Of a stretch of DNA of 64,000 nt, positions 37,556 through 62,472 are shown one piece after another. Both the position numbers and the translations under genes were made by a program. The DNA is taken from positions 838,791-902,790 of the forward strand of contig CAVQSR010000001.1 in NCBI GenBank assembly GCA_963716055.1, read 5' to 3'. A model generated the notes under the pieces. The model saw only the letters and a program-made list of their open reading frames with translations. It ran no database searches and was not told where the DNA came from. Each line of letters begins with the position of its first letter. Position 1 is the stretch's first letter. This DNA comes from an uncultured Gemmatimonadales bacterium (GTDB lineage Bacteria > Gemmatimonadota > Gemmatimonadetes > Gemmatimonadales > GWC2-71-9).

Positions 37556-38727
37556 CGCCCGTCCGGGGCGCCGGATCGGTGCGGGAGGTCGAGGCGCCGC
37601 AAGAGGCCGCCGCTCCGGTCCAGGGCGTAGAGGCTCTCTCCCGATACCGCCACCGACGAGACGAACCCGGCATTGCGGTCGAGCCCCATGGGCGCGAGAT
37701 CGCCTCCCGCCTGCTGGAGCAGATACAGTCCCTCCGGCCCGGCAGCCGCCGCGACGAGATTTGCCCAGACAGCGACATCGTACACGAAGCGCGGCTCCGA
37801 CCAGTGCGCCATCACGCGCGGCGCCGCCGGATTGCCGACGTGGACGAGGTACACGCCCTCGCTGCCCGCCGCCACGGCGGCCACCGTGTCGCGCAGGTCG
37901 ACGCGGCGCAAGGACCCCCGCAGGTCGACGCGGCCCGTGACCGCCAGCGGGCCGTCGGGGGCCGCGCGGTAGGCCCACAGGGCCGACTCCGTGAGCACCC
38001 ACAGCAGCGTGTCGTTTTGCCAGCGCAGGTCGGTCACCCGGTCGGCCGCGGTGGTGGAGTCGGTCCGCCACACCACCGAGTCCCCGCTCGCTTCGCCCAG
38101 ACGCAGCGCGGTGGCCGTCGCGACGGCGAGCCGCCTCCCGAGGGGCGCGATCGCCGCCACCTCTCCGCCCAGGACCCGGGTCCCGGGCGCCTCGCCCGCC
38201 AGGCCGTACAAATAGAGACCGGTCGGCGTGCTCAGCAGCAGCCGCTGGCGGTCCTGGTCCACGGCGGCATCGGTCACGTTGCGCAAACCCTGCCCGCGCC
38301 GCCCGAGGTACTCGAGGGACGGCAGCGCGGCCACGAGCTCGGCGCCCTCATCTCCCCACGCCGCCAGGAGCGCGCGATCGAGCGTGACGAATGTGGCCCG
38401 CGTCCGCAACGCCCGCGTGCGGCCCGCGAGGGTCAGGGGCGGGGCCGAGCGGTACCGCAACGCATAGTGCGAATCCGCCTCACGCCCGATCATGAACCCG
38501 ACGAGCCCTCCCACGGTCGTGGACAGGATGCCGACACACTCGCCGCTCGTGCACCATCCGATGGCGCGGTTGTGTTCGCCGGCGGAGTACACCGCGGTCA
38601 GGCCCAGTCCGACCGCCACGCCGAGGCCCGTGAAGAGCACGCGGCGGGGCAGGCGACCCTGACCGTCGAGGGTGACCGGCGCCGCCGCCGTCGCCGCGGC
38701 GAGGAGCGCGAGCGTGGCGCGTTTCAT
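37552..38727 (-). CDS. Hypothetical membrane-anchored protein with beta-propeller-like (LVIVD-like) repeats
   Basis: 391 aa. It starts MKRATLALLAAATAAAPVTLDGQ and has 2 hydrophobic segments. Repeated motifs are GLYLYGLAG, GVYLVHVGNPAAP, GLYLLQQAGG and SLYALDRSGG. Confidence 0.65.
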   Translation of the reverse strand: MKRATLALLAAATAAAPVTLDGQGRLPRRVLFTGLGVAVGLGLTAVYSAGEHNRAIGWCTSGECVGILSTTVGGLVGFMIGREADSHYALRYRSAPPLTLAGRTRALRTRATFVTLDRALLAAWGDEGAELVAALPSLEYLGRRGQGLRNVTDAAVDQDRQRLLLSTPTGLYLYGLAGEAPGTRVLGGEVAAIAPLGRRLAVATATALRLGEASGDSVVWRTDSTTAADRVTDLRWQNDTLLWVLTESALWAYRAAPDGPLAVTGRVDLRGSLRRVDLRDTVAAVAAGSEGVYLVHVGNPAAPRVMAHWSEPRFVYDVAVWANLVAAAAGPEGLYLLQQAGGDLAPMGLDRNAGFVSSVAVSGESLYALDRSGGLLRRLDLPHRSGAPDGR

Positions 38728-40982
38728 GGTGTCTCCACGACGCGCAGGGTGCGGTGCCGCAGGGCGATGCGACCGGTGCGCTGGTCGGTGACGGCGAGGT
38801 CGAGGTCGTAGGTCCCGCGCGGGGCGTTGGACAGGTCCACCGCGAGGTACACGGGCACGCGGTCACGGCCTTCGAGCGGCTCCTGCGACGTGTACTGCAG
38901 CACGACCTGGTCGTCCCCCTCCGCGGTCACGCCGACCGCGTCGAGGACGCCGCCAAAGACGCGCGCCGCGAGGCCGCCCCGCTCAATCTCGCGGACCCGC
39001 AGCCGCACCGCGACCTGGAAGCGTACCCCGGGTCCCACGCCGGCCGAGTCCTCGGGTGTGAGGCCGTAGACCTCGAGGTAGAGGTGCACCGGATCGCCGC
39101 GACGGAACTCGAGGCGCGGGTTCGGATCGATGAAGAAGTCGTGCAGGCCGCGGCCGCGGCTGTTCTCCTCGCGCGGGGCGATACGGTCCGCCACGATGAT
39201 ATCGCTGAGCGCGAGGGCGCCCGTGCCGAGGGCCTCGACCGTCATCGGGCTCATGCCCCGCGCGGCACGGTCCAGGGCGGGCAGCCGCGCTTCGAACCGA
39301 TACACGTAGGCGCCCGGGGGCACGCGCGCGGTCTCCGTGCGCTCCTCGAACTGGACGTCGGCCGTGAGCCGCACGGTCTCGCTGCCGCGCCTGGCCACCC
39401 GATCCTGCCGGCCGTCGTCGGTGACGAACAACGCCGTCTCGAGATCGCCGGCGTCGAGGTCCACGCCCTCGGCCATCTGCCGCACGGGTATGCCGGCGAA
39501 GAACAGGACTTCCGTTCCCCCGCTGTCATCCCGTGGGCGGAGCTGCGCGGCCTGCACGGGGATGGAGTCGAGACGCTGCGTGAGCGGCACGTTGTCGTAG
39601 GTCGCGGGCCGCACGAACCGCGCGTTTTCGGCATACGCGTCGAAATCGACCGCGAGCCGATGATAGTTGTACGTCGGTGGACCGGTGAAGACAAACCGCA
39701 GATTGCGCTCGGGATAGAACCACACCGTCGTCACCATGCCGGTCGCGAGGAGGTCAGCCGAGTTCTCGTACGGGCTGGGTGGGAAGGTGGCGATGACGGG
39801 CGGGGGACCGTACCGGATGTGGATCTGCCCGCGGTCGGTGAGCCAGCCCCGGAGCCGCAGGTCGGGCGCCCCGAACAAGAGCTCGGCGTGGGCGACCCGC
39901 GCCAGGTGCTCGAGGCGGTACTCGTTCTCGGGCGTGAGGCGCAGCGGCTCGGCGCTCCACCAGTAGAGGCGCTCGAACTGGCGCTGGGCCGAGTCCGCGA
40001 GACCGCGGTACGCGAGTGCGTCCGCCGCGCGCAGGATCGTGGACAGGTCCTCGAGGGGGCCCCGCTCGCTTGGGGGCAGCGTCGCGAGCGCCCGCGCGAA
40101 CGCGGAATCGGCGGCGGCCGCGCGGCCCGACCGCCAGAGGGCCAAGCCATAGAACAGGGCCGCGTTGCCGTTGTCGGGCGCGACCCGGGCGAAACGGCGC
40201 GCCTCGTCGAGGAGCTCCTCCATCCGTTCGGTTTCCGCCAGCAGCCCGAGGAGCCCGCGGTTCGCGGCCTCCGACACCGGCGCCGCGCCGACCGCCGAGC
40301 GATAGTGCTGCTCGGCCCTCGCGAGGTCGGCCTCGCCCAGCCCGGGCACCGGCGCCGAGTAGTCGAACAGGATGTCCTTGGTGTAGTGGGGGTCGCGCAG
40401 CGCGGCCTCCCAATCGAAGGTCTGCGCCGGTCCCAGCACGAGACGCCGCCGCGCCACCGCCTGATAGCGGCGGAAATAGATGTGGCCGATCTCCGCCTCG
40501 ACCACGGCCATGGCGGCGGGGTCCTCCGTGCGTTGCGCCGCCGCCAGGGCGCGGCGGAACAGGCGCTCGGCCTGGACTCGCAGCAGCGGTTGCTTGAGCC
40601 GGAGTCGGGCGATCTCGATCAGGTAGCGCGGGTTGTCCGCGTCGAGCCGGAGGGCCGCCTCGAACTCCCGGTCGGCGTCAATCCGCCGTCCCCAGGAGCC
40701 GAACCCCGCTCCGGCGGTGCGGGCCAGCAGCAAACCATAAAGGAAGCGCGCATCGGCGAGGTCGGGGGCCACACGGCTCGCGCGGGCGGCTCGGTCGACG
40801 GCTGCCGCCGTGTCGCCGCGCTCGGCCAGCTGCAAGGCCTGCTCCAGCAGGCGGCGGCCGTTCACGTGCGAGTCCGACTGGCTTTGGGCGACGAGCGACC
40901 CGCTCGCCGCGACCAACGCGAGCCCCAGCGCGATGAACGGCGCGGCGCGGCGCGCCGGACCCGGTCGCGCGCGGTAACGCAC
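38724..40982 (-). CDS. GWxTD domain-containing protein with N-terminal TPR region
   Basis: Track ORF 38724..41174. I prefer GTG 40982, which gives signal VRYRARPGPARRAAPFIALGLALVAASGSLVAQ. The 64 residues upstream are R/P/G-rich filler. GWxTD motif is LRGWLTDRGQIHIRYGPP. There is an ATGA overlap with the downstream gene. Confidence 0.8.
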   Translation of the reverse strand: MRYRARPGPARRAAPFIALGLALVAASGSLVAQSQSDSHVNGRRLLEQALQLAERGDTAAAVDRAARASRVAPDLADARFLYGLLLARTAGAGFGSWGRRIDADREFEAALRLDADNPRYLIEIARLRLKQPLLRVQAERLFRRALAAAQRTEDPAAMAVVEAEIGHIYFRRYQAVARRRLVLGPAQTFDWEAALRDPHYTKDILFDYSAPVPGLGEADLARAEQHYRSAVGAAPVSEAANRGLLGLLAETERMEELLDEARRFARVAPDNGNAALFYGLALWRSGRAAAADSAFARALATLPPSERGPLEDLSTILRAADALAYRGLADSAQRQFERLYWWSAEPLRLTPENEYRLEHLARVAHAELLFGAPDLRLRGWLTDRGQIHIRYGPPPVIATFPPSPYENSADLLATGMVTTVWFYPERNLRFVFTGPPTYNYHRLAVDFDAYAENARFVRPATYDNVPLTQRLDSIPVQAAQLRPRDDSGGTEVLFFAGIPVRQMAEGVDLDAGDLETALFVTDDGRQDRVARRGSETVRLTADVQFEERTETARVPPGAYVYRFEARLPALDRAARGMSPMTVEALGTGALALSDIIVADRIAPREENSRGRGLHDFFIDPNPRLEFRRGDPVHLYLEVYGLTPEDSAGVGPGVRFQVAVRLRVREIERGGLAARVFGGVLDAVGVTAEGDDQVVLQYTSQEPLEGRDRVPVYLAVDLSNAPRGTYDLDLAVTDQRTGRIALRHRTLRVVETP

Positions 40983-41482
40983 CGTCAGGGGCCGGGCCGG
41001 CTCGACGTTCCGTCGGGGCAACCGCCCTCCGGGCGCTGCGGGGATCGTCAATCGCGCGGGCGAGCCCCCCTTGCGGGGTCGTCCGGCGGCGGATAGCGTC
41101 GGGCCATTCGCCCGTCCGGGGGCGGGTGGTGCGCGGGCCGACACCCCTTGCGGGGTCCGTGATTCGCGTGTCACTATTTACCATAGCGTGCGGTGGGCAG
41201 GTCCGCTACTGCGCCACCGCACCTACCCACCGCCGTTGGTCAGTACCGCGCGCACGCGTGGAGTCGGATGTAGACCGCAGTCCGGACGCCGGGCGCTCCC
41301 CGGTTGCTGTCCGGGACATGCCGAGCCGTCGGCGCGGTTATCGCTCTCTCGAGGCCGTCGAGGGGTGCCGCGCAGATCTATAAAGTGACAATCGAGAAGT
41401 CCCGCGAGGGGCGGGGCAGTCGATCGTGTGCGAGCCCATTCGGGCGCGCGCCGACGGCGTTCTTCAGAAAGGGGTAGGCCCC

Positions 41483-44400
41483 ATGCGTTCACTGCTTGTT
41501 CGCATTGCGGTCGGTGCCTTCGTAGCCGCGGCGTTGGCGGCGGCGGTACCGGCGGTCGCCGACGCCCAGACCGGCAAGATCACGGGCGTCGTGCGCGACG
41601 AGTCTGGCCAACCGCTCGAAGGCGCGGAGATCTTCATCGAAGGAACGGGTCTGACGACGTTCACCGCGTCGAACGGCCGGTACTTCTTCCTCGCCGTGCC
41701 GCCGGGCACGTACTCCCTCATCGGGCGGCGTATCGGGTCCCAGACGGTGACCCAGCGCGGGATCGTGGTTTCCATCGACGTCACGCGCGAGGTCCACTTC
41801 ACCCTCGCCGGGGCCACCACCGTAACCCTGACGGAGATCGTGGTCGAGGCGCCGGCCGTGCCCCTCGTGCAGCCCGGTGTGTCCAACTCCACGATCGGCA
41901 TCTCGGGTGACGTGATCCGGGCGCTGCCGGTGGTGTCGATCGAGGGCGCGCTGAAGCTGCAGCAGGGGTTCCTGCAGGTGCCCGACAATTCCGACATCAT
42001 CTCGTTCAGTGAATCGCGCCGCAACGTGACCAACCCGATCCGCATCCGCGGCGGCCGGGGCGGCGAGACGCTCACGATGATCGACGGTATCCCCGTCAAC
42101 AACTGGATCTACGGCGGCGCGGCCATCGGCATTACGCCGGAAGCCGTGCAGCAGCTGGACTACATCAAGGGCGGCATGGAGCCCCAGTACGGCAACGCGC
42201 TCTCGGGGATCGTGAACATCGCCACCCGCGATGGCGGTACGGACCTGGCCGGCTCCCTGCGGTTCCAGAGCTCCGAAGTCGGCGGCTGGATGGGCAATGA
42301 CTCCGACGACCTGCTGAACTACAGCCTGCTCGACGGGTACATCTCGGGCCCGATCCCGGGCTTCGCCAACAAGCTGCGCTTCATGGTGGCCGGGCGGCAG
42401 CAGCGCTCCGCCGACGCCGTGTACCAGTTCGACAACGACGTGCGCGACCCCTCCTGCACGCAGCTGACGAACCCGAACTCCTGCTCGGGCAACCCCTCGC
42501 CGTTCCTGGGCGCGAACTTCATGGACGTGTTCGGTGGCTGGCGCGCGTTCGGCGCGAACAACCTGCGCGAGGTGTCCGGCAAGCTGACGTACTTCTTCCG
42601 GCCGACGATGAAGCTGGGCGTGTCGTACCTCGACAACCAGCAGCAGCGCCAGCCGTTCGACTTCACGTTCCTGCCCACCTACGGCAACCCGGTCGAGGCG
42701 CCGGTCATCGACAACCTGGCGGACTCGATCGCCGTGATCGGGAACCGGACGGGATCCCGTATCGCCCCGCTCGACTTCCCCAAGGTGGTGATGGGCTCGA
42801 TCAACGCCGGCCGCAGCCTCGCGGTCGCGCGGTGGGACCACATCCTCGGCCGGTCATCCTACACCCTGGCCGTGGGGCGACTCAGCCTCGAGCGTACGAC
42901 CTGCAACTTCTGGCAGGGCGTCTGTCTCCAGGGGAACTTCGGCGACCCGAATTTCACCGACGACCAGTTCATCTCGCCGCTGGCGGGAACCTGCCAGATC
43001 CACCCGACGTGCGGCACGGACTCGTTCTACGGCGGGGAAACGCTCAAGTCACTCATCTTCCGTGGCGACGTGCAGTCGCAGGTCACCGATCACCACCAGC
43101 TGGCCGCCGGCGGCATGTTCCTGCGCCACGACGTCACCCTCGACCTGCTGCAGAACGTCGGTGGCAACGAAGTCCGCGTCTATCCCCAGGCGTACGCCGC
43201 CAAGCCGTGGGACCTGGCGCTCTACGTCCAGGACCGGATCGAGTACGACTTCCTCACGGTCAAGCTCGGCGTGCGCTACGACCTTGGCTCGGCGGGCGGC
43301 ACTTTCTGGGCCAACCCCCTCGATCCCACCAACGGGACGACCGCGGCGGACGTGTGCGCCGATCCGTCCAGCTGGCAGGGTCGCACCTTCCCGGTGTACG
43401 ACGCATCCGGGGACTCGGTGTACAACCGCACGATGTCGGCCAACCCGGCCTGGGCCACCCAGCTGGGCCTCAACTGCGTCAACCTCGCGACGGGCCAGGT
43501 CGATGCGGCCACGCTCGACTCGGCGCGCCAGCTCGCGTCGTCCGACGACTTCAGCACGTCGAAGCAGCGCCGGCAGTTCAGCCCGCGGATCGGCGTGTCG
43601 TTCCCGCTGGGGCCGTCGAGTGCCGTGTTCTTCAATTTCGGGCGGAACACGCAGAACCCGCTCCTCAACAACCTGTTCGCCGCCACCGGCATCGGGACGA
43701 CCCGCGAGGGCACCACCGCCGGCCCGACGCTGCAGGTGCCGGGTGGCACGGCCGTGCCGTTCGTCGGCAACTCGAACCTGCTCACCGAGCAGACCACGAG
43801 CTACGAAGTCGGCTACGCGGCCGAGTTGGGCGGTGATTACGCCATCGGCGTCACGTTGTTCTCCAAGGACCAGATCGGTCTGACGGGCTTCCGGACCGGC
43901 GGGATCGTGGACGGCGTACAGGTGTTCGATCCCGGCGCGACGTACGCCGGCGACGAGACCCCGAATTACCGCATCCTCGTGAACCAGGACTTCCAGACGG
44001 TGCGCGGGGTCGAGGTGCAGCTGCGGCGCCGCGTGTCGAATTACTGGGGATTCGACCTCAACTACTCGTTCTCCGAGTCGCGCACCAATGCCGCCGACCC
44101 GGAGCGCGAGGTGGAGCGCCAGATCCAGCAGGGCGATCCGCGGCTGAATCAGGAAGTCACCTCGGAAATCGATCAGCCGCACGTGTTCAACGCGTCGCTG
44201 ATCTTCCAGACGGGCCGCAGCTACCCCCAGACGATCGTGGGGAAGGTGCTGGAGAACTTCACGACCAGTCTGGTGTTCCGGGCGGCGAGCGGGCTGCCGT
44301 ACACGCCGACGCTCGATTTCTTCGGCCTCGGCACGAACCAGCTGGTGCGCAATACAGGCCGCGCCCCGTCGACGTTCCAGCTCGACTGGTCGCTGTCCAA

Positions 44401-44644
44401 GGACTTCTCGCTGTCCAACATGCGGTACGGACTCACTGTTCAGGTGCTCAACGTGACCGACCGGAAGAACTGCATCCAGGTCTACACCACGACCGGGCAG
44501 TGCACCGTCGGCTCGGTGGACGTGTCGCGCAACCGCGAGGGCAACAACATCGCGGCCGACGCGATCACCACGACGTACCTGGACCGCGCGCAGTTCTTCG
44601 GCTCCCGCCGATCGGTGCAGGCCGGTCTCCGGGTGTCGTTCTGA
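41483..44644 (+). CDS. TonB-dependent receptor with N-terminal carboxypeptidase-regulatory-like domain (SusC/RagA-like architecture)
   Basis: Track ORF 41426..44644 trimmed to ATG 41483. Signal is MRSLLVRIAVGAFVAAALAAAVPAVADAQ. CarboxypepD_reg segment is GKITGVVRDESGQPLEGAEIFIEGTGLTTFTASNGRYFF. Plug segment is IRIRGGRGGETLTMIDGIPVNN. A long barrel ends ...QAGLRVSF. Confidence 0.9.
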   Translation: MRSLLVRIAVGAFVAAALAAAVPAVADAQTGKITGVVRDESGQPLEGAEIFIEGTGLTTFTASNGRYFFLAVPPGTYSLIGRRIGSQTVTQRGIVVSIDVTREVHFTLAGATTVTLTEIVVEAPAVPLVQPGVSNSTIGISGDVIRALPVVSIEGALKLQQGFLQVPDNSDIISFSESRRNVTNPIRIRGGRGGETLTMIDGIPVNNWIYGGAAIGITPEAVQQLDYIKGGMEPQYGNALSGIVNIATRDGGTDLAGSLRFQSSEVGGWMGNDSDDLLNYSLLDGYISGPIPGFANKLRFMVAGRQQRSADAVYQFDNDVRDPSCTQLTNPNSCSGNPSPFLGANFMDVFGGWRAFGANNLREVSGKLTYFFRPTMKLGVSYLDNQQQRQPFDFTFLPTYGNPVEAPVIDNLADSIAVIGNRTGSRIAPLDFPKVVMGSINAGRSLAVARWDHILGRSSYTLAVGRLSLERTTCNFWQGVCLQGNFGDPNFTDDQFISPLAGTCQIHPTCGTDSFYGGETLKSLIFRGDVQSQVTDHHQLAAGGMFLRHDVTLDLLQNVGGNEVRVYPQAYAAKPWDLALYVQDRIEYDFLTVKLGVRYDLGSAGGTFWANPLDPTNGTTAADVCADPSSWQGRTFPVYDASGDSVYNRTMSANPAWATQLGLNCVNLATGQVDAATLDSARQLASSDDFSTSKQRRQFSPRIGVSFPLGPSSAVFFNFGRNTQNPLLNNLFAATGIGTTREGTTAGPTLQVPGGTAVPFVGNSNLLTEQTTSYEVGYAAELGGDYAIGVTLFSKDQIGLTGFRTGGIVDGVQVFDPGATYAGDETPNYRILVNQDFQTVRGVEVQLRRRVSNYWGFDLNYSFSESRTNAADPEREVERQIQQGDPRLNQEVTSEIDQPHVFNASLIFQTGRSYPQTIVGKVLENFTTSLVFRAASGLPYTPTLDFFGLGTNQLVRNTGRAPSTFQLDWSLSKDFSLSNMRYGLTVQVLNVTDRKNCIQVYTTTGQCTVGSVDVSRNREGNNIAADAITTTYLDRAQFFGSRRSVQAGLRVSF

Positions 44645-44723: not shown

Positions 44724-47700
44724 ATGACGCTCCATCGTCCGTTTATGCGCCGTCCGGCGGCCGCGTGGCTCGCCGCCGCGTTGCTCCTGTTCTTCACCGG
44801 CGCGCTCACTGCCCAACAGACGGTCAACGGCTATCCCGTCGGACCCGATGGCGAGCCGGTGGCCAACCCGCCACGCCGCACGCTCGGCGCGGCGCGCGAC
44901 CGCGCCGTCTCCGACCTGCGCTCGGCCGGGTTCTTCACCCGCGTGTGCGCCGAGAACTCGACCGGCGCCTTCGACATCGACCGGTCCGGGTGCGCGCCGT
45001 TCTTCCAGACCATGAACAACGGCTTCGTGGCCGTGTGGCCGCGCGAAGCCGCGTGGGCCTGGGCGGCCCCGCCGACCACGTGGACCAACGCCGTGGCACA
45101 GGTGCCGAGCCTCGCCAACGCCATCGGCAGCGGCTGGACCGTCATCAACTCGCACCAGACCGGGTTCGACGACCTCGGGCCTTCCGACAACGGGCTGGGC
45201 CTGCACCACGCCGGCGTCACCACGGTCAACGACCGCAGCTGCCTCGACCACCGCACGTCGTACGGCACCGGCAACCCGCTGCTCGCGGGGAGCAACTGCC
45301 CGGTGACCTGGGGCACCGAGCCCGGGTCCGCGGTGCGCGATGCGAGCGACCCCGGCCGCGGCTGGGCGGGCGCGCGCCCCGTGCCCCTCGAGGTGTATTC
45401 ACAGCGGTTCGCGAGCCTGGGCGCCAACTTCAACTTCGACTTCTGGCGGGTTTCGGACGCCGAGCTCGACGCCGCGGGCGTGCCCGCGTTCAAGACGCTG
45501 GGCAATTTCCATACGTACGGCTACACCAGCGACTACAACGTCGAGATCCTGTGCGGCACGAGCGTCATCCGGAACTACGCCCACATCATCCCGGCCACGA
45601 GTCAGGTGGCCCCCGGCGGCTGCTCGGGGTCCGATCCCGCGCGGCGCCGCCCCGGCTGGCCGCTCGGCATCGAGGCGCGGTTCGACGCGTTCACGTTCCA
45701 GCTCCCGGCGTTGAAGGAAGTCCAGTACTACCAGGTGACCTTCACCAACCGGTCGGAGGCCGTGTACGGCGTCAAGCTCGATTACGACTCGGTGTACATG
45801 GGCCTGCAGATGGGCTGGTTCGGGAACTCCAACATTCAGCAGAACCCGACGTGGTGGGTCCCCGAGCTGGGCGCGGTGTTCACGTCAGCGCTCCCGATCC
45901 AGGGGCCCTGCGACGCGGGCCGCATCGTGTCCGATCTCACGTGCGCGCGCTGGGGCGCGAACTTCGGGTTCGTCCAGGGTGCGTCCGCCCTGATCGTGCT
46001 CAAGTCGCCGATCGGCGATCTGCGCAACAAGTGGTTCACCCGCATGGGCAGCGCGTTCTACGATCCGTCCCACCCGCTGGCGGGCGACACGCTGACGTAC
46101 AACCACGCGCATCTGTGCGGCTTCCGTAATTGCGGCCGTACGCAGTTCGCCACCGATCCGATCAACACGCCGGACCACGAGCAGCGCGGCTTCGGGCAGC
46201 TGTCGTCCACCGAGGTCAATACCCTGGGCAACCGCAACGTGACCACCGGACTCAACAACAACGAGTACTGGCACACGTTCCGCCCGCGCAACTTCCCCAC
46301 GGTGCGCTACACGCCGGGAGATCCCCCGTCCGTGGGCGGCGGCTACAACAAGTGGGCCCCCAACATGGCCGGCATCAACTGGGACTGGGGCGGTCCACCG
46401 GGATCGATGAACGCCAAAGACGGCGTGCAGGACACGTTGGCGGTCGACGGATGCTGGATCCAGGGCTGCGCCGGCCTCTGGGGCGACACCCTGCCCAACG
46501 GCAAGTACTCGGCGTACAGCAACACGCACGGCACCCTCGCCGTCGGCCCGATCCGGCTGATGGCCGACTCGGTCGTGTCGTACGTCGTCGCCATCACGCC
46601 GGGCCAGGCCAACGACTCCGCCGGTCTCATGGCGCAGGTGTCGGCGGCGATCGACAATTACATGAACTTCTACCTCGCCCCCGACGCGGCGCCCAAGTGC
46701 CGGATCACGGGCGTCACCCGCAACGCCGGCGCCCGGGCGCAGGACGCGGTGATTCGCGTAACGTGGGAGGACTCGTGTCATCCAGGGAACTGGACGGACC
46801 CGTTCCTCGACAAGCAGTACAACGACCTCCTCGCCGCGCCCGCGGGATCGCCGCTCGAGCGCTTGCGGCTCCTGAACCCGCGCCTCGACGATACCCTCGC
46901 GTTCCTGCGCGCGAACAACATCGCGAAGATCTATCTGTACAAGTCGTGCGAGGACGGCGCGTCGTGGACCACGGGGGATGACTGCATCGACGGCAGTCCG
47001 GCAACGGGCGCACCGTTCGACGTGCTCGGCTGGCTGCCCTACGCCACGTTTGAGCCCGGCAACATCCCGACGACCTACCAGGACCTGAACGTCCGGCCGG
47101 GGCAGACCTACACCTACAACGTCATCGGCGAGACCCGCGGCGCCAACTTCACCGTGCTCAACGGCGACTCGGTGGCGCTCTCCGGGACGGAATACATCTG
47201 CGCGCGGAACTGCCGCATCGAGACGCTGGCGCTCGCGCCGGTGCTGTTCAACACGCTGTCGGCGTCCACGGGCGAGCCCAACGTCGGGCGGGTGTACCTC
47301 CCGCTCTCGCTGCAGGGCGGCGGCTCGCGGGCGTCCGCGGCCGTGACGGCGCGCACCGGACCCGTGTCGGAGTCGCGGCTCGGCATCACGGTGACGGGGG
47401 ACTCGCTCAGCGACGCCAGCTTCCGCGTGCTGTTCGGCACCAGCGCGGCGGCCACCCAGATCGAGCGTTACACGGGGACCGACTCGGCCAGCGTGCAGAC
47501 GCGGGTCGTGCTGTACAACGCCGGCTCCCCGGCCGACAGCGTCGTCGTGTCGGGCGCGAACCTGGGCGGCCTCACCGCGAGCGGCGCGGCATCGGTCCGC
47601 ACGACCATCGCTCCCGCCGTGGACTCGGTCGCCTTCACGTGGGCCGCGGGTCCCGTCATGGCGCTGGCCCGGCTGCCGGGTGCCGCGCCCGCCGACGCGC

Positions 47701-48911
47701 TGCTCGTGTCCAACACGCTGACCGGCGACGCCGCGACGCCGGGCGGGTTCCACGGGAATCGCGACTACCCGCACTTCGACTTGGGCCTCAACAGCACGCT
47801 GCACACGCTGAATGGGACCGGCTTCAATCGGGAGGAGTTCCTGAACTCCGACAGCACCGTCGTGCCGCCGCTCGTCACCCCGACGGTCACGTGGCTCGCG
47901 GCTCGCGCGCTGCAGGATCAGGGCACGGGACTGAACGAAGCCTACGGCGACTACCGCATCAGCTGGGGCACCTACGCCTACGGCACCGGTGGCCAGGGCG
48001 GGCGCGACCAATTCGTGCTCGACTTCTCGAACCCGTCGGGCGCGGCCAGCCAGATCACCACGTCGCTCGGCGCGCGTGCCGCGGTGAGCACCGCGGTGGC
48101 CAGCGCGGAGGTCGCGACGGCGGTGCAGGCCGCGACGGGGGTCCCGACCACCGTCGACTCCCTCGTGGCGCTGAAGCTGCCGTTCACGGTGTTCAACGCC
48201 AGCTACAACCGGCCCGTCACGATCGCGATGCGCAAGCGGCCGGCGGCGGGCAAGTCGGTGGTGGTGGGCGGCAGCGCCGACACGATCCGCGTGGACGTGC
48301 CGGCGGACGCGTGGGTGCCGGGCGACACGATCATCTTCCTCGAGGCGGTGGGCGGCGGGCCGCTCGCGGTGACGTTCGAGCGGGCGGTGATCGGCTGCGA
48401 CGCGACGCGGTACACGCGCGAGTCGTGCAACCCGGTCTATCCCGGCACGCGCGGCTCGTCGGTGTACCTGAGCCCCGTCGCCGGGCAGTTCAACCGGGCC
48501 TCCTACCACGTGCCGGTGACGCCCGCGGCGGCGTTCACGCTGACGGCGACGAAGCCCGGCCGCGGGACGAACCTCACGTCGAACGCGGCGGCGATCCGCG
48601 CGGGTCTCGCCTCGGTGCGGGTGGTGCCGAACCCGTACGTCATGGTGTCGCAGTACGCCGGCAACGTGCTGCTGTTCACCCACATGCCGCCGCGCGGCAA
48701 CATCCGGGTGTACACGGTCGCCGGACAGTTCACACAGCAGATCAGCTGGACCGAGGCGGACCTCCGCGGCGACGGCGACCTCGCCTGGAACCTGCGCACG
48801 CGCGAGGGCAACGTGCTCGGCGCGGGACTCTACATCTACGTGCTGACCGCCACCGACGCGAGCGGGGCCACGATCGGCACTCGCACCGACAAGTTCGTGG
48901 TCATTCGCTAG
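44724..48911 (+). CDS. Very large secreted protein (1,395 aa) with T9SS type-A-like C-terminal sorting domain; N-terminal ~1,290 aa unrecognised
   Basis: Signal is MTLHRPFMRRPAAAWLAAALLLFFTGALTAQ. The C-terminus is VRVVPNPYVMVSQYAGNVLLFTHMPPRGNIRVYTVAGQFTQQISW...GAGLYIYVLTATDASGATIGTRTDKFVVIR. That is the Por_Secre_tail / FlgD-Ig pattern. Confidence 0.8.
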   Translation: MTLHRPFMRRPAAAWLAAALLLFFTGALTAQQTVNGYPVGPDGEPVANPPRRTLGAARDRAVSDLRSAGFFTRVCAENSTGAFDIDRSGCAPFFQTMNNGFVAVWPREAAWAWAAPPTTWTNAVAQVPSLANAIGSGWTVINSHQTGFDDLGPSDNGLGLHHAGVTTVNDRSCLDHRTSYGTGNPLLAGSNCPVTWGTEPGSAVRDASDPGRGWAGARPVPLEVYSQRFASLGANFNFDFWRVSDAELDAAGVPAFKTLGNFHTYGYTSDYNVEILCGTSVIRNYAHIIPATSQVAPGGCSGSDPARRRPGWPLGIEARFDAFTFQLPALKEVQYYQVTFTNRSEAVYGVKLDYDSVYMGLQMGWFGNSNIQQNPTWWVPELGAVFTSALPIQGPCDAGRIVSDLTCARWGANFGFVQGASALIVLKSPIGDLRNKWFTRMGSAFYDPSHPLAGDTLTYNHAHLCGFRNCGRTQFATDPINTPDHEQRGFGQLSSTEVNTLGNRNVTTGLNNNEYWHTFRPRNFPTVRYTPGDPPSVGGGYNKWAPNMAGINWDWGGPPGSMNAKDGVQDTLAVDGCWIQGCAGLWGDTLPNGKYSAYSNTHGTLAVGPIRLMADSVVSYVVAITPGQANDSAGLMAQVSAAIDNYMNFYLAPDAAPKCRITGVTRNAGARAQDAVIRVTWEDSCHPGNWTDPFLDKQYNDLLAAPAGSPLERLRLLNPRLDDTLAFLRANNIAKIYLYKSCEDGASWTTGDDCIDGSPATGAPFDVLGWLPYATFEPGNIPTTYQDLNVRPGQTYTYNVIGETRGANFTVLNGDSVALSGTEYICARNCRIETLALAPVLFNTLSASTGEPNVGRVYLPLSLQGGGSRASAAVTARTGPVSESRLGITVTGDSLSDASFRVLFGTSAAATQIERYTGTDSASVQTRVVLYNAGSPADSVVVSGANLGGLTASGAASVRTTIAPAVDSVAFTWAAGPVMALARLPGAAPADALLVSNTLTGDAATPGGFHGNRDYPHFDLGLNSTLHTLNGTGFNREEFLNSDSTVVPPLVTPTVTWLAARALQDQGTGLNEAYGDYRISWGTYAYGTGGQGGRDQFVLDFSNPSGAASQITTSLGARAAVSTAVASAEVATAVQAATGVPTTVDSLVALKLPFTVFNASYNRPVTIAMRKRPAAGKSVVVGGSADTIRVDVPADAWVPGDTIIFLEAVGGGPLAVTFERAVIGCDATRYTRESCNPVYPGTRGSSVYLSPVAGQFNRASYHVPVTPAAAFTLTATKPGRGTNLTSNAAAIRAGLASVRVVPNPYVMVSQYAGNVLLFTHMPPRGNIRVYTVAGQFTQQISWTEADLRGDGDLAWNLRTREGNVLGAGLYIYVLTATDASGATIGTRTDKFVVIR

Positions 48912-48924
48912 GAGGATGACGACC

Positions 48925-50031
48925 ATGTCGCGACATTCCGCTTCGCTTGCCGCCGTCGCCGTGCTGGTCGCGTCGGCCAGCTCGCTGCCGGCCCAGGGCT
49001 CGGGGACCGTGCTGCTCCCGGTTCCCGAGAATCCCACGACCCGCGTCGCTACCCGCGGCGCGAATTTCCTCGAGATCGGCGTCGGGGCGCGCGGGCTGGC
49101 GATGGCCGGCGCGTACACCGCCATCGCCGAAGGCGTCACCGCGCTCTACTGGAATCCGGCCGGGGCGGCCGACATCGAAGGGCCCTCCGCCGCGATCTCC
49201 ATCGCCGACCTGTACCAGGACGTCGGGATCACCCACAGCTTCGTCGGCGGCGTGCTGCCGCTGGGTGGGGCGGGCGTGTTCGGCATCGCCCTCTCGCAGC
49301 TGACGAGCGGCGACATCCAACGCACCACCGAGGAGTACCCCGACGGCGGCGACCCCGCCTTCGGCGACGTCTTCAGTTTCAAGGCGACCGCCGCCGGCCT
49401 GTACTTCGCCCGCCGGCTCACCGATCGCCTGGCGCTCGGTCTGGGCGTCAAGTTCGCGACGGAGGGCATCGACGACGCCAAGGCCAACTACGTCGGCCTC
49501 GACGTGGGGACGAAGTTCCGCACCGGCCTGTACGGGACGCACGTCGCGGCGTCGCTCTCCAACCTCGGCACATCGGGCCGCTACCGCGGCGCGGCGATCG
49601 AGCAGTTCTCGTTCGACCAGTTCCGGCCGGGCGCCACGCCGGTCGAGCTGTCGACCGACGAGCTGCAGATGCCCACCCTTTTCCGGTTCAGCATCCGTTC
49701 CGACGTGCTGGGGCCGAGCGACGCGCTGCTCGGGACCAACGAGCAATTCAACGTGCTCGCGGTGCTGGAAGCGACCGACGCGATCGACACCGACGTCCAA
49801 ACGATCCTCGCGGCCCAGATCTCCTACCGCGACCTGGTGTACGTCCGCGCCGGGAAACGCTGGGCGAACGAGAAGGAGACCCAGGACGTCCGCGGCTTCA
49901 GCCACGGCGCCGCGGTGGGCGGCGGGGTGAAGGTGCCCATCGGCCGCGGGTTCCTGGCGTTCGACTACGCCTATACGGGCATGAGCGACCTGCAGAACGT
50001 GCAGGTCTTCTCCCTCGAGTTCGGCTTCTAG
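48925..50031 (+). CDS. PorV/PorQ-family outer-membrane protein
   Basis: Track ORF starts at ATG 48916, but GGAGG (48911..48915) is optimally spaced for ATG 48925. Signal is MSRHSASLAAVAVLVASASSLPAQ. The family signature is GVGARGLAMAGAYTAIAEGVTALYWNPAGAA. It ends ...VQVFSLEFGF. Confidence 0.8.
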   Translation: MSRHSASLAAVAVLVASASSLPAQGSGTVLLPVPENPTTRVATRGANFLEIGVGARGLAMAGAYTAIAEGVTALYWNPAGAADIEGPSAAISIADLYQDVGITHSFVGGVLPLGGAGVFGIALSQLTSGDIQRTTEEYPDGGDPAFGDVFSFKATAAGLYFARRLTDRLALGLGVKFATEGIDDAKANYVGLDVGTKFRTGLYGTHVAASLSNLGTSGRYRGAAIEQFSFDQFRPGATPVELSTDELQMPTLFRFSIRSDVLGPSDALLGTNEQFNVLAVLEATDAIDTDVQTILAAQISYRDLVYVRAGKRWANEKETQDVRGFSHGAAVGGGVKVPIGRGFLAFDYAYTGMSDLQNVQVFSLEFGF

Positions 50032-50052: not shown

Positions 50053-50757
50053 ATGAAAACGACCGTCGCGGCGCTCCTCGCCGTTGTCGCCCTCGGTGCG
50101 ACGACGTCGGCCGCGCAGGAGGCCACCCGTTTCCGCATCGTCCCTGTGGTCGGCGTGATGCGGTTCGACAAGACGTCCGCGCTCAACGCGCTCGACGGCG
50201 GGAAGTACTGGGCGTCGGGCGGGCTCTCGGCGAGCTACGCGGTGACGCCGGGCTTCCGGGCCGGCCTCTACCTCGAGTACCAGCGGCCCACCACGAGCTC
50301 CGAGTTCTATCCGTACGCGCTGTTCCGCACCGGCGCCGACTACCAGCTGTTCGGCGTGTCGCAGGTCGTCAGCATCCTGTCGTACGGCGTGGACGTGGCC
50401 TACCAGCTGCCCAACCGGTGGGGTCCCTTTGTCAAAGTCGGGCTCGGCCGGCACGCGGTGTACAGCGACGTGCAGGTGAACAACGCGACCGCGCACGTCG
50501 AAGGCACGCAGTTCGTGGTCGGCGGAGGCCTCAACTACACCTTCACCGAGGCCATCGGCGTGCGGCTCGAGCTGGTGGACTTCATGTGGAACGACTGGGA
50601 GCGCGACGCCCTCAACCCGGTGGATCCCGCGTACCAGAACAACACGTTCCCCGAGGACAACCCCGAGGGGATCACCTATTCCAAGCCGTCGCTGATCCAC
50701 AACATGCGCCTCGCCGTGGGGTTTTCCTTCGCGCCGTCGCGCAGCGCGTCGCGCTGA
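50053..50757 (+). CDS. Small outer-membrane beta-barrel protein
   Basis: 234 aa. Signal is MKTTVAALLAVVALGATTSAAQ. It shows an OMP_b-brl-like strand pattern (...VKVGLGRHAVYSD...GGGLNYTF...RLAVGFSF). Confidence 0.7.
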   Translation: MKTTVAALLAVVALGATTSAAQEATRFRIVPVVGVMRFDKTSALNALDGGKYWASGGLSASYAVTPGFRAGLYLEYQRPTTSSEFYPYALFRTGADYQLFGVSQVVSILSYGVDVAYQLPNRWGPFVKVGLGRHAVYSDVQVNNATAHVEGTQFVVGGGLNYTFTEAIGVRLELVDFMWNDWERDALNPVDPAYQNNTFPEDNPEGITYSKPSLIHNMRLAVGFSFAPSRSASR

Positions 50758-50779: not shown

Positions 50780-52609
50780 ATGCGCCTACAACGTTCATTC
50801 GGTTTCGCGCTCGCCGTCCTGGTCGGAGGCGCCTGCGAGCACGGCGAGCTCATCGAGGCCGTGTCGCGGGACGGTACGACCGGCATCCCGGCGATCGAGC
50901 TGACCACGGCGGCGGCGGGCGGTTTCCTGTCGGGCAGCCGCACCACGAACCGGTTCCTATCATCAGGGGTGTTCGACACGACGATCACCGACGCCTTCGG
51001 CCGGGCGACCACGAATCCGCCGTACTTCCGGGCCGATCCCAACCCGTTCTACGGCACGACGTCGCTGATCTACCTGCCCAACGCCGCCGGAGCGACGTTC
51101 ACGCCGCCCAACCGGCTGCTGCCCGCGCTCGCGGCCCCCGGTCGGCTGTTCAGCTACTACGGGTCCGGACCGAACGCGATCGCCTACATCGTCCCCGGCG
51201 GGCACGCCGGCAACGGTGCCGGCAACACCGTGTGGGAGGTCTGGATCAACGTCGACCAGCTGACCCCGGCCACGCGCTACATCATGGGGCTGGCCCGGTA
51301 CGCGCTCCAGGTGAACGGCGCCACCGACTGGGCCGAGTTGCTGCTGAACGGCACCGTCACGTCGCCGGACGCTCTGGTGTTCCGCACCGGCGATTTCACG
51401 CCGGCGGGGAAGAAGTCGGACGGCGTCTTCACCACGAATTGCGCCAGCGTCAACATCCTGCAGCCGACGGGCGGCGCCAACCCGCACCTGATCGCGGGCG
51501 GCACGACCGACGCCGGCGGCGGCGTCGAGTTCGACCAGACCATCTGCTCCAACGCGGCGTCGGCCTGGTTCAACGGCCTCGGTAACGCGCGGAGTCCCGT
51601 GCCGACGAACAACAACACGGCGCTGGGCCCCAATCAGTACAACTTCCTCGTGGTGTGGGAGGCGCTGGCCGACAGCACGCCGGACTACACGAAGCCCGTG
51701 TTCCGCATGCAGATCGGTCCGGTGCTGACCGCCGCCGGGGCGGTGGCGAACAACAGCTACGCGCCCATTCCCACGGCCGCATTGACCACCGCGCAGCTGG
51801 CGCTGCTGCCGGGCGCGACGGCGTCGCCCGATTCGATCAAGATCACGGCAAACAACCTCGTCCCGCTCGCGGCCGGCACGTCGTACCAGCTGTGGCTCGC
51901 GGAAACGGCGGGCGGCACGTTCGCCAAGGTGACGGGCAATGTCGTGCGGCTGAGCGGCACCGCCGTGGTGGACACGCTGTCCGGGGTGAGTGACTTCAAT
52001 CTGAACCCGGGGATGACGAGCGCCCGGGTCGAATTCGACTTCCTGCCGTTCCGGGGCGTGGCCTACAACGCCGCGGTCCTGGCTGTCGGGGCCACGGGCG
52101 CCGCGGCGATCCCGGCGGGGCAACCGCTGTGGACGCCGATGGTGACCCAGAAGGTCCCGGGTGGTGCCGTGCCCGTCCTGACGAGTACCCTGACCTTCGG
52201 CACCTTCGGTGGCGGCCAGAGCCGGGCGTTCGGCGCCGCCGGAAGCGCCAACGGCGGCATCTTCGGCCGCGAGCTGCGCCAGGACATCAAGCGCATTCCC
52301 CGCCCGCCCACCGGGTACGCGTACGAGGCGTGGCTGGTGAGCTCGACGGGCGCCACGGGGCCGCAGCACCTCGGCCCGTTGCTCTCTCCCTATCCGGAGC
52401 TGGCGCCACTGACCGATGCCGACGTGAGCACCGCTCCACCTGTTTCCGGCGTCGAGATCACCCAGGCGGCGCTGCGATACGAGGCGCCGAGCGCCGCGTT
52501 CTACTGCGATTGGGATCGGGTCCAGGTCCGGCTCGGGCCGAAGGCCGGCGCGGGAGCCGTGCCGCCCACGGTCGTGCTGTCGGGCGTCAATCCCCGGCGG
52601 GGATGCTGA
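50780..52609 (+). CDS. Probable lipoprotein, 609 aa, hypothetical
   Basis: It starts MRLQRSFGFALAVLVGGAC. The rest is Thr/Gly/Ala/Asn-rich beta-type sequence with no family recognised. Confidence 0.7.
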   Translation: MRLQRSFGFALAVLVGGACEHGELIEAVSRDGTTGIPAIELTTAAAGGFLSGSRTTNRFLSSGVFDTTITDAFGRATTNPPYFRADPNPFYGTTSLIYLPNAAGATFTPPNRLLPALAAPGRLFSYYGSGPNAIAYIVPGGHAGNGAGNTVWEVWINVDQLTPATRYIMGLARYALQVNGATDWAELLLNGTVTSPDALVFRTGDFTPAGKKSDGVFTTNCASVNILQPTGGANPHLIAGGTTDAGGGVEFDQTICSNAASAWFNGLGNARSPVPTNNNTALGPNQYNFLVVWEALADSTPDYTKPVFRMQIGPVLTAAGAVANNSYAPIPTAALTTAQLALLPGATASPDSIKITANNLVPLAAGTSYQLWLAETAGGTFAKVTGNVVRLSGTAVVDTLSGVSDFNLNPGMTSARVEFDFLPFRGVAYNAAVLAVGATGAAAIPAGQPLWTPMVTQKVPGGAVPVLTSTLTFGTFGGGQSRAFGAAGSANGGIFGRELRQDIKRIPRPPTGYAYEAWLVSSTGATGPQHLGPLLSPYPELAPLTDADVSTAPPVSGVEITQAALRYEAPSAAFYCDWDRVQVRLGPKAGAGAVPPTVVLSGVNPRRGC

Positions 52610-52637: not shown

Positions 52638-52678
52638 CCGCCCCGGCTTCCGTGAGGAGGCCGGGGCGGATTTTTTTT
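52638..52678 (+). terminator. Canonical rho-independent terminator
   Basis: CCGCCCCGGC-ttccgtgaggag-GCCGGGGCGG is followed by ATTTTTTTT. It starts 29 nt after the stop at 52609. Confidence 0.85.
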
Positions 52679-52695
52679 CTTATCTCTCCGTCGGT

Positions 52696-60000: not shown

Positions 60001-60539
60001 CCGTGGCTTTGCACCTCGAGCCAGAACCCGTCCGGGCCGAACACGCGCGCGAAATAGGCGGCGCTCTCCCGCGCGGCCTCGTAGTTGCCCTGACGGAGCC
60101 ACAGCGCGATCTCGCCCGATAGGCAACCGGCCAGGCCCAGGACGCCGTCGCGGTGGCGCTCCAGGACTTCGCGGTCGATGCGCGGGCGCCGGTAGAACCC
60201 CTCCAGGAACCCGATGGACGACAGACGCACGAGGTTGGCGAAACCCGTGCGATTCCTCGCCAGGAGCACGAGGTGGGAATACGGCGCCGGGGCGTCCGGT
60301 TCCTTGTCGCGCCGGTGGCGGCTGCCGAACGCGAGGTACGCCTCGAACCCGAGAATCGGGCGGACGTGGCGGGCCCGCGCCTCGTGATAGAACGTCAGCG
60401 CCCCGTGCAGGTTGCCGTGATCGGTGATGGCGAGCGCGTCCATCTTGAGGGTCCGGACCCGGTCCAGCAGGTCGGGAATCCGGTTGGCCCCGTCGAGCAG
60501 GGAGTATTCGCTATGCGTGTGGAGATGTACGAACGGCAT
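57081..60539 (-). CDS. dnaE: DNA polymerase III subunit alpha
   Basis: This is the 3' 1,152 codons of track ORF 57081..62672, starting at ATG 60539. It reads MPFVHLHTHSEYSLLDGANRIPDL (PHP domain). It has PDIDLDF and an OB-fold C-terminus. The upstream 711 codons are antisense to a real plus-strand gene. Confidence 0.95.
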   Translation of the reverse strand: MPFVHLHTHSEYSLLDGANRIPDLLDRVRTLKMDALAITDHGNLHGALTFYHEARARHVRPILGFEAYLAFGSRHRRDKEPDAPAPYSHLVLLARNRTGFANLVRLSSIGFLEGFYRRPRIDREVLERHRDGVLGLAGCLSGEIALWLRQGNYEAARESAAYFARVFGPDGFWLEVQSHGMAEEAVVAAGMFRLAEDLGLPVVATNDAHYLAREDAEAHDVLLAIGTGKDLDDPKRFRFFGQESYVKSEDEMRRLFPERPEVVAETERVAALCEVEFEKRYYLPQYPRPAEFASDGDLLVHLARSGAVARYGDPLPADAEARLGYELDVISRTGYAGYFLIVYDLIKAARDRGIPVGPGRGSAAGSLVAYALGITNVDPLRFDLLFERFLNPDRISMPDIDLDFCFERRGELLEYARTRYGRDSVGQIITFGTLKARAAFRDVARTLRLELGDVDRLTKLIPAGPGFGYTLAEARDRVPELRAAATADDRVSKVIDLGSRIEGLARHASVHAAGVVIAPGPLSEYVPVCLAPQGADAIITQYDMVALEQAGMLKIDLLGLKTLTVIHDAVTTIRERHGVPVDVDTLDLADPEVYRLLASGRTAGVFQFESALATDCLRQMKCDRFDDLVATNALLRPGPLDTGMHLVFINRKLGREPVRYPHPDLREVLEPTYGVITYQEQVMRIANVLAGYSLAEADVLRKAVGKKDQALITEELERFVARAAAAGHDRRVVEDIAAQIATFGRYGFNKSHAVAYSLLSYQTAWLKAHYAAEFMAALLSSEIGDTDQVVRYIAEARELGLEVLPPDVNESGFKFTVVGDRRIRFGLGAIKNVGEGAIRSIIAGREAEGPYGSLVRLCERIDLRLCNKRVLEALIDSGACDSLGGHRAQLVAALESAFGEAQVLQQDREAGQVGLFGDETPVPRPASPVPDVPVWTEHERLTREKAVLGFFISGHPLEKFRAEVELFGARTTATLGEWSDQKVTIAAVVTVVKRQVSKKSGAEYARLVLEDFHGTADALVFPEAWARLAEVIRPDSLLLLTGSYSPRDRGEERAPFIVEAARPLADLRPSGAVGVELAWAAPAPPPAETARAAAALCAAHPGPAPLYVAWGDGNGLTARLRSRAVRVDADDDLLSALRGLLGPEHVHLVKAD

Positions 60540-60669
60540 CCGCTCAGTTCCACCGGGCCGCCCCGCGGGCCCCCGGTTGTCAGCTCGGGGAAAACAGCGC
60601 GAGCGACAACGGGGACGAGTCCTTCGTCCCCGTCGAGGCCGCCTCCAGCCGCTGCGGCTGGCTACTCGG

Positions 60670-60725: not shown

Positions 60726-60773
60726 GCCGTCAACGGTGGTCCGTGGGCGCGCCGGCGCAGGGGGGAGCTCGGC

Positions 60774-62471: not shown

Positions 62472-62472
62472 G

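Follow-up and report, generated by a model that had tools for sequence, protein, structure and literature searches.

In the attachment complex of the Bacteroidota secretion system of type IX (T9SS), PorZ sits on the barrel PorQ and PorU on PorV, both proteins keep their C-terminal tails, and the two genes of the second pair occur in the order porU-porV. Cargo whose C-terminal domain (CTD) is of type B can rely on a neighbouring FadL-like protein as its cognate shuttle or anchor, as in the pairs SprB-SprF and PG1035-PorP (PMC9143113, PMC12618676), and a FadL-like barrel can also be an attachment platform, as BamG is for the surface lipoprotein BamH in the Bacteroidota BAM complex (PMC12578637). 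SusC/SusD-type complexes of Bacteroidota, which unite a TonB-dependent transporter with binding proteins and enzymes exposed on the surface, are encoded by a receptor gene followed by the gene for a large, lipid-anchored partner on the cell surface. Here we examine a stretch of 64,000 nucleotides (the window; contig CAVQSR010000001.1 of assembly GCA_963716055.1, positions 838,791 to 902,790) from an uncultured Gemmatimonadales bacterium, in which the gene for a 1,395-residue protein is the second of five in an outer-membrane operon. We demonstrate the anatomy of this protein, the covariation of its disulfide-forming cysteines, the structure of its operon, and a gene trio (TonB-dependent receptor, large tailed protein, PorV-family barrel) found across phyla. 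Our best explanation, in which we place about even confidence, is that the outer membrane has here a dedicated module for nutrient acquisition, with this protein as its large subunit at the cell surface; we infer its docking on the barrel at the surface, its cooperation with the receptor and its export route. We favour this explanation because of the operon structure and synteny, the cross-phylum trio, the conserved PorZ/PorU-like tail, the precedents for cognate barrels, and the signs of an extracellular nature in the paired cysteines and the enrichment in Trp and Asn. The operon is laid out as follows.

41426 to 44644, plus strand: TonB-dependent receptor (Pfam CarboxypepD_reg 2.7e-17, Plug 3.8e-07, TonB_dep_Rec_b-barrel 6.2e-16)
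44724 to 48911, plus strand: the 1,395-residue protein
48916 to 50031, plus strand: PorV/PorQ-family (FadL-like) outer-membrane barrel, 371 residues (NF033709, 122 bits against a cut-off of 90)
50053 to 50757, plus strand: small outer-membrane β-barrel of the 8-strand type, 234 residues (Pfam OMP_b-brl 3.9e-10)
50780 to 52609, plus strand: putative lipoprotein of an unplaced family, 609 residues (lipobox ..LVGGA/C, read by eye; here and below the slash marks the predicted cleavage site)
52638 to 52679, plus strand: intrinsic terminator, a 14-bp stem with 12 GC pairs, then ATTTTTTTTC (T8 run)

The likeness to the PorZ-PorQ and PorU-PorV pairs lies in the combination of a large secreted protein bearing an immunoglobulin-like (Ig-like) CTD with a FadL-like barrel of the PorV/PorQ family; the best matches of the tail are PorZ and PorU, and the 371-residue barrel passes the family cut-off. 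The differences are several. The 1,395-residue protein has no C25 protease domain and is matched by the PorZ and PorU models over its tail only, with no full-length match to the two β-propellers plus CTD of PorZ (NF052228); the barrel fails the equivalog cut-offs for PorV, PorQ and PorV2; and the cassette is multi-copy per genome and includes a TonB-dependent receptor. Like type B cargo, the protein adjoins a dedicated FadL-like barrel and has orphan copies elsewhere, and some tails of its family and of a sister family resemble CHU_C, below cut-off. The barrel is nevertheless of the PorV/PorQ rather than the PorP/SprF family, and the receptor that completes the trio is absent from the described type B pairs. 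With SusC/SusD-type complexes the locus has in common the order of receptor gene and large surface-exposed partner gene, the existence of paralogous cassettes, and the regulators and catabolic enzymes seen at sister loci. Its receptor, however, is not a member of the SusC/RagA family (TIGR04056, 28.6 bits against a cut-off of 368), and its large partner is not a lipoprotein and matches no SusD profile, so that anchoring would be by CTD and barrel and not by lipid. Finally, a FadL-family barrel as platform for a large extracellular protein recalls BamG-BamH, although BamH is a lipoprotein, the barrel of one sister locus (L083) scores 22 bits against a cut-off of 250 with the BamG model, and there is no BamA context here. 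By these profile tests the 1,395-residue protein falls outside PorU, PorZ, SusD and every curated CTD family; it appears to resemble both a T9SS cargo with its cognate anchor and a transporter accessory subunit.

Operon structure and synteny in Gemmatimonadota

The five genes lie on one strand, separated by gaps of 79, 4, 21 and 22 bp; the large gene begins 79 bp after the receptor gene, and the gene for the 371-residue barrel starts 4 bp past the stop codon of the large gene. Each of the five products has an export signal or outer-membrane domains, and the terminator, a very strong one, lies 29 bp beyond the last stop codon, between the operon and a convergent M23 peptidase gene. The initial annotation had taken the large gene for the apparent payload of the locus. 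It is instead one subunit-like member of a tightly packed outer-membrane operon that has its own receptor and a dedicated barrel.

The reading frame of the receptor opens at a GTG codon (41426), the likely start being the ATG at 41480, which would give a signal peptide ending in ..AVADA/QTG. Since the 371-residue barrel passes the NF033709 family cut-off and fails those of the equivalogs (PorV2, 74 bits against 325; PorQ, 42.7 against 220; PorV, 26.6 against 250), it constitutes a distinct subfamily; its homologues carry the NCBI name ‘PorV/PorQ family protein’. No second PorV-family gene on the same contig was present among the best 120 matches of the barrel-family search. The 609-residue protein received no assignment from Pfam or NCBIfam, which returned only sub-threshold RskA_C and anti-sigma-like stretches, and PDB searches with the receptor, the 371-residue barrel and the 609-residue protein found nothing significant.

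Among 5.8 billion clustered proteins there are 113 relatives of the 1,395-residue protein, all of them full-length (1,300-1,500 residues). Those with a named source are all from Gemmatimonadota, and their annotation never goes beyond ‘hypothetical’. Gemmatimonas itself has homologues, in the MAGs L064 and L065. Gene neighbourhoods were compared at 76 Gemmatimonadota genome loci, each gene being counted over the loci where it could be tested. Of 59 loci, 50 have a PorV-family barrel gene after the large gene, and 38 of 42 have a receptor gene directly before it; among the cassettes, 47 of 48 include the small barrel, and the 609-residue protein was detected in 32 of 40. This gene order is kept even at 28-31% identity, and the linkage of the large gene to a PorV-family barrel and a receptor looks obligatory. 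Many metagenome-assembled genomes (MAGs) carry two or three cassettes on separate contigs, and one groundwater Gemmatimonadota MAG has two complete cassettes in tandem (L009:368-17580). Such multiplicity fits substrate-specific modules better than single-copy machinery, and we rejected single-copy core machinery as an identity for the cassette on this ground.

The synteny also bears on the idea that the protein is a surface adhesin or a structural component of the envelope, whose association with a receptor is incidental. It is indeed a large, disulfide-rich, multi-domain surface protein, the window copy is situated amid KdtA, GWxTD and M23 peptidase genes, and two orphan paralogues (L010:6176-9381 and L013:5782-9083) directly follow genes for a protein that fuses an ABC-2 permease with ABC_transp_aux and for a protein with DUF4340, Pfam families which we take to be those of the gliding-motility proteins GldF and GldG. 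A receptor next door in 38 of 42 Gemmatimonadota loci, and in all six sister loci described below, is nonetheless hardly incidental, and the protein has none of the repeats typical of adhesins. We think a purely adhesive or structural role very improbable.

Anatomy of the 1,395-residue protein

The open reading frame (ORF) runs from ATG to stop behind a Shine-Dalgarno-like GAGGA motif and encodes the 1,395 residues first ascribed to it. Its GC content at third and second codon positions (GC3 0.94, GC2 0.54) is the signature of genuine genes in this DNA, which has a GC content of ~70% across the window, and we conclude that the gene is real. That it is also the largest gene of the window, as had been stated, is probably true: the longer ORF at 57081 to 62672 (minus strand; 1,863 residues as read) is DnaE, with Pfam domains that start only at about residue 716, and the ~700 codons that open it probably reflect an overextended ORF call in DNA of 70% GC, not a real extension. 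The initial annotation had further described the protein as rich in Cys, Trp, Asn and Gly. Compared with eight neighbouring proteins, Cys (1.43%, 2.1-fold), Trp (2.2%, 2.0-fold) and Asn (5.5%, 2.0-fold) are enriched, the last two mainly within the N-terminal domain; Gly, at 10.5%, is just 1.08-fold the level of the neighbours and, in a genome of 70% GC, not distinctive. The eleven Cys motifs that the annotation quoted are all there, in the order given, and, also in agreement with it, the sequence contains no HExxH motif and self-BLAST finds no internal repeats. The protein can be divided as follows.

44724 to 44813, plus strand: signal peptide, residues 1-30 (basic n-region, hydrophobic core, A-x-A; predicted cleavage ALTA/QQ)
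44814 to 46688, plus strand: N-terminal globular domain (N-domain), residues 31-655; unrecognised family and fold, six Cys pairs, many invariant Asp, Asn and Arg
46689 to 48608, plus strand: middle region, residues 656-1295; Fn3-like domain with a helical insertion, further β-rich domains and an α/β region, four Cys pairs (internal boundaries approximate)
48609 to 48908, plus strand: C-terminal Ig-like tail of the T9SS CTD type, residues 1296-1395 (VVPNPY ... GLYIYV ... KFVVIR)

We aligned 65 full-length homologues to examine residue conservation and the covariation of cysteines. In sequence order the 20 cysteines fall into ten pairs, of which 173/192 and 742/754 are invariant; every invariant Cys of the family belongs to a covarying pair. 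The less conserved pairs are present or absent as units: both, one or neither partner is found in 21, 0 and 44 homologues for Cys 277 and 300, in 12, 0 and 53 for 659 and 685, in 30, 0 and 35 for 826 and 830, and in 60, 0 and 5 for 465 and 470. Joint gain and loss of this kind, far beyond chance, indicates local disulfides, and these in turn an oxidising, extracytoplasmic location. The alignment thus offers strong evidence for local disulfides, in support of the disulfide-stabilised extracellular architecture that the Cys pairs had suggested at the outset. The signal is of the signal peptidase I (SPase I) type, with no lipobox Cys, and cleavage is predicted at ALTA/QQ, where A30 and Q31 are kept in at least 90% of homologues (Q31 in 98% of the 65). 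Taken together, a secreted, disulfide-stabilised, extracellular and multi-domain protein is supported.

A Gln directly follows the predicted cleavage site in all four SPase-I-type proteins of the operon, as read from the following stretches of the window.

41480 to 41560: receptor, AVADA/QTG
44724 to 44820: 1,395-residue protein, ALTA/QQT
48916 to 49000: 371-residue barrel, SLPA/QGS
50053 to 50120: small barrel, TSAA/QEA

The pattern resembles the ‘Q-rule’ (N-terminal pyroglutamate), reported as a peculiarity of Bacteroidetes (PMC5837995); the genome at hand belongs to Gemmatimonadota.

The protein was modelled as two pieces with AlphaFold2 (AF2) from the 65-sequence alignment. The model of residues 31-655 scored well (pLDDT 89.8, pTM 0.92) and has short and few helices. 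Sequence and profile searches with these residues against Pfam, NCBIfam and PDB returned nothing, as did Foldseek against BFVD; Foldseek against PDB found no convincing neighbour, the best E value being 1.2e-3 at a template-modelling (TM) score of 0.16. Profile searches with the protein also gave matches at the level of chance, such as dCMP hydroxymethylase at E 0.014. When 1.84 billion proteins were searched exhaustively with a profile of the N-domain, only 144 representatives matched, and the family is unannotated and without a convincing structural neighbour. The initial claim that some 1,290 residues could be placed in no known family therefore holds, by profile and fold searches, for these ~625 residues, whereas residues 656-1395 are partly assignable (Fn3-like and other β-rich domains and a PorZ/PorU-like tail). 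Nor did these searches assign the body of the protein to a standard glycoside hydrolase or peptidase, the outcome that had been named as contrary to the initial view.

The sole Foldseek neighbours of the N-domain, all weak (TM score 0.16-0.20, root-mean-square deviation 8-15 Å, E at least 1e-3), are members of GH94, GH149, GH161, GH63, GH116, GH65 and PL12, carbohydrate-active enzymes that combine a β-supersandwich with an (α/α)6 fold. They bring up the alternative that the protein is an enzyme of a new family, secreted or bound to the surface, such as a hydrolase or lyase of glycans or peptides, with a catalytic N-domain and a receptor linked to it only metabolically, as the importer of its products. 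Invariant positions of the family are occupied by Asp, Asn, Arg, Gly, Pro or a paired Cys, with D432, D455, D570 and D588 among the invariant Asp of the N-domain and the motif LKSPIGDLRNK at residues 426-436. An enzyme would suit the abundance of invariant Asp, Asn, Arg, Tyr and Trp as well as a loop that resembles DxNxDG; it would also suit the peptidase- and sialidase-like neighbours at sister loci and the NamZ, GH3, ROK and SIS genes that adjoin a few Gemmatimonadota loci. However, the fold scores are too low for us to adopt a GH94-type assignment; the secondary structure gives no hint of an (α/α)6 barrel and no sequence signal accompanies it. Moreover, the family has no conserved His and its N-domain no conserved Glu, and the residues that the N-domain has in common with the sister family look, from the aligned segments, like a structural core. 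An enzyme of this description seems unlikely to us, although the idea overlaps with a surface subunit of an uptake module and does not exclude it.

The second model, covering residues ~655-1395 (pLDDT 92.8), is largely β-rich. A PDB profile search matched the Fn3-like protein 3mpc at about residues 775-815, and we infer that the middle region serves as a stalk. Foldseek placed PorZ (5m11) first, at E 1.4e-6 and probability 1.0 over an alignment of 296 columns with a TM score of 0.12, followed by Fn3 arrays and by PorU (6za2) at E 1.3e-4. The model of the tail is an Ig-like β-sandwich of ~80-100 residues, like the solved CTDs, and nowhere is the protein better conserved than in the tail (mean identity 57%, against 31-37% in the other parts). 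By sequence, the Pfam scan of the whole protein gave nothing beyond a sub-threshold autochaperone stretch, and no CTD family appeared at E ≤ 1 in whole-protein scans of Pfam and NCBIfam. The NCBIfam matches of the protein were confined to its last ~100 residues and were to the tails of PorZ (6.1e-5; NF052228, 21.6 bits against a cut-off of 260, model positions 660-747 only) and PorU (0.0067; NF033707, 14.1 bits against 420, tail only), both far below cut-off, and the sole PDB profile match of the tail alone was the PorU CTD (E 0.12, PorU residues 1085-1154). Seventeen tails of the family, scanned alone against CTD profiles, resembled FlgD_ig in 10 cases, CHU_C in 7 and Por_Secre_tail in 1, all below cut-off (best E 1e-4, 0.014 and 0.13, respectively); the tail of the window protein itself reached 15.9 bits with FlgD_ig, for which the cut-off is 27. 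The C-terminal sorting tail of the initial annotation is thus supported, weakly by sequence and better by structure.

These matches raise the question of whether the protein could be machinery rather than cargo, a Gemmatimonadota counterpart of the PorU/PorZ attachment complex that, with its barrel, processes or anchors other cargo. PorZ and PorU are the best matches of the tail in both sequence and fold, the tail is highly conserved, and a large CTD gene followed by a PorV-family barrel gene mirrors the porU-porV order. The PorZ and PorU models nevertheless match the tail only, at a small fraction of their cut-offs, and genomes with two or three paralogous cassettes, every one of them provided with a receptor, would be hard to reconcile with such a role. 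A PorU-like sortase in particular was rejected: no Peptidase_C25 domain was found at E ≤ 1, there is no conserved Cys-His dyad in the 65 homologues, which lack any conserved His, and the invariant cysteines are all in disulfide pairs. We give the attachment-complex reading little credence.

A gene trio across phyla

At its far end, the N-domain search reached proteins of 800-1,200 residues from Caldithrix/KSB1, Glassbacteria and Gemmatimonadota that have T9SS-type tails and no other Pfam domain. One such distant match served as seed for a sister family, which has over 200 members of ~960 residues and a range that includes Calditrichota, KSB1, Ignavibacteriota/Melioribacteraceae, Zhuqueibacterota and MAGs labelled Bacteroidota. 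The core of the N-domain is common to both families (hhalign probability 93.3% and 96.6% over 300-395 columns), and CHU_C (type B) similarity was seen in 30 of 50 sister tails, below cut-off. We looked at six sister loci, whose sources are Calditrichia, Melioribacteraceae, Zhuqueibacterota, Oleimicrobiaceae, a MAG with the label Bacteroidetes and one further genome, and in all six a receptor gene is followed by the gene for the large protein and then by a PorV-family barrel gene, whose product scores 182-205 bits with NF033709. Between the window and the Calditrichia locus the receptors align with 229 bits and the barrels with 103 bits, while the large proteins have diverged past detection by phmmer. 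The core trio thus recurs across several related phyla of the Fibrobacteres-Chlorobi-Bacteroidetes (FCB) group and is previously uncharacterised; the searchable literature, including that on PorV2 and on T9SS in Gemmatimonadota or Caldithrix, yielded no account of a trio of Oar-type receptor, CTD protein and PorV-like barrel.

Further genes at the sister loci code for sigma54 two-component regulators, enzymes of M14- and AstE/AspA-like type, GGT and permeases resembling DctM, and together these give the loci the look of catabolic or nutrient-utilisation loci. The sigma54 two-component system is present in three of them, and two of the three, L081 and L082, have a sensor kinase with FG-GAP/UnbV_ASPIC domains. 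Beside the trio, five of the six loci encode a BNR/sialidase-like protein of ~515-555 residues with a clear type A T9SS tail, to which the 609-residue protein of the window is unrelated.

L081, 4284 to 5825: BNR-like protein
L082, 4643 to 6184: BNR-like protein
L083, 4553 to 6124: BNR-like protein
L085, 1538 to 3091: BNR-like protein
L086, 10171 to 11835: BNR-like protein

The Oleimicrobiaceae locus has another PorV-family gene on the opposite strand (L084:7271-12058, minus strand), flanked by genes for a protein of more than 1,150 residues, an unplaced 504-residue protein and a GH16-malectin-FlgD_ig protein, which suggests that pairings of CTD proteins with PorV-like barrels are a wider theme.

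How the large protein crosses the outer membrane is a point on which the trio invites a different reading. In Myxococcus, Oar has been proposed as a TonB-energised exporter or assembly factor for PopC. The receptor-like barrel of the trio might likewise export or assemble the large protein, with the PorV-like barrel as shuttle and anchor, in a self-contained system that needs no classical T9SS. Its architecture is of the Oar type (CarboxypepD_reg, plug and barrel), the trio is strictly kept across phyla, and TXSScan reported no T9SS outside Bacteroidetes (PMC4793230). No T9SS core gene (SprA/Sov, PorK/L/M/N) was seen among the scanned proteins of the window, the sampled flanks and large neighbours, a sample too small for a conclusion. 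On the other hand, the sister-locus neighbours with type A CTDs (Por_Secre_tail) imply that those organisms have a general T9SS, the tail persists in orphan paralogues that have no receptor gene next to them, and a folded, disulfide-bonded passenger of 1,365 residues would be implausible for a plugged barrel of 22 strands. Of the readings considered here, we find this one the least probable.

The proposed surface module

We return to a large surface subunit of a nutrient-acquisition module as our preferred explanation. The protein would be exported by Sec, lose its signal peptide before Gln31 and fold with about ten local disulfides. It would then cross the outer membrane by a T9SS-type route that recognises the Ig-like tail, and the tail may stay bound to the PorV/PorQ-family barrel encoded 4 bp downstream, holding the protein on the surface. 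The β-rich middle, as a stalk, could place the N-domain of ~625 residues next to the TonB-dependent receptor, where it might capture, and possibly trim, a macromolecular substrate for TonB-powered import. In Gemmatimonadota, the small barrel and the putative lipoprotein would complete the module. Such a role would be akin to that of SusD, surface glycan-binding proteins or surface-enzyme partners of SusC, with protein docking rather than lipid as the anchor.

Several observations weigh against this explanation. No ligand-binding or catalytic site could be identified in the 1,395-residue protein; across the 65 homologues not one His position reaches 80% conservation, nor is there a conserved Glu in the N-domain. 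The tail falls below the curated cut-off of every CTD model, both type A (TIGR04183/PF18962) and type B (CHU_C, PF13585/TIGR04131). The TXSScan survey cited above would leave Gemmatimonadota without a T9SS, at odds with a recent review that counts Gemmatimonadetes among its possible holders (PMC11285876). Seven orphan paralogues (L010, L013, L016, L022, L042, L047 and L067) retain the tail with no barrel and, where testable, no receptor. In one complete MAG chromosome (CP070722.1), the receptor is a 369-residue C-terminal fragment (L001:8777-9886) beside a UbiA fragment, while the large gene and the other cassette genes look intact; the fragment could be due to decay, to rearrangement or to faulty assembly. 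A set of 140 flanking genes in Gemmatimonadota, tested for Pfam enrichment, gave no hint of a common function or substrate, the top families reaching only 4 of 140, and the window copy is itself surrounded by housekeeping and envelope genes (KdtA, GWxTD protein, M23 peptidase).

Other genes of the window may be recorded here. The GWxTD protein, which also has TPR-like matches, is encoded divergently upstream of the operon (38724 to 41174, minus strand; TIGR04514, 50.6 bits), and it holds that position in at least 12 loci (L005, L006, L008, L011, L019, L027, L028, L032, L033, L048, L060 and L062); a literature search on GWxTD found no mention of it. A Ser/Thr protein kinase at 16533 to 18104 (plus strand) has extracytoplasmic Big_2 and PEGA/CarboxypepD_reg-like domains, and the large ORFs near it, at 14647 to 16350 and 19793 to 22066, have no Pfam match.

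The significance of the 1,395-residue gene derives from its partner genes. Gemmatimonadota are abundant in soil and freshwater and their outer-membrane biology is almost unstudied, and the trio joins TonB-dependent uptake with T9SS-type tails and PorV-like anchoring, which are usually studied separately. Somewhat doubtfully, we suggest that the trio represents a class of outer-membrane complex that is spread over the FCB group and has not been described before. In such a complex, a protein with a new-fold domain of ~450-625 residues would be delivered to the surface, stay permanently docked on its own PorV-like barrel by an uncleaved T9SS-type tail, and form an extracellular capture or lid subunit of a TonB-dependent transporter; in a more radical version, the cassette may export and anchor its own cargo without a classical T9SS. 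If true, the SusCD design, which is based on lipoproteins, would have an alternative anchored by protein, and the trio would tell how bacteria without SusD-type lipoproteins give their TonB transporters surface capture subunits. It would also mean a second job for PorV-like barrels, and a new extracellular fold whose ligand merits finding.

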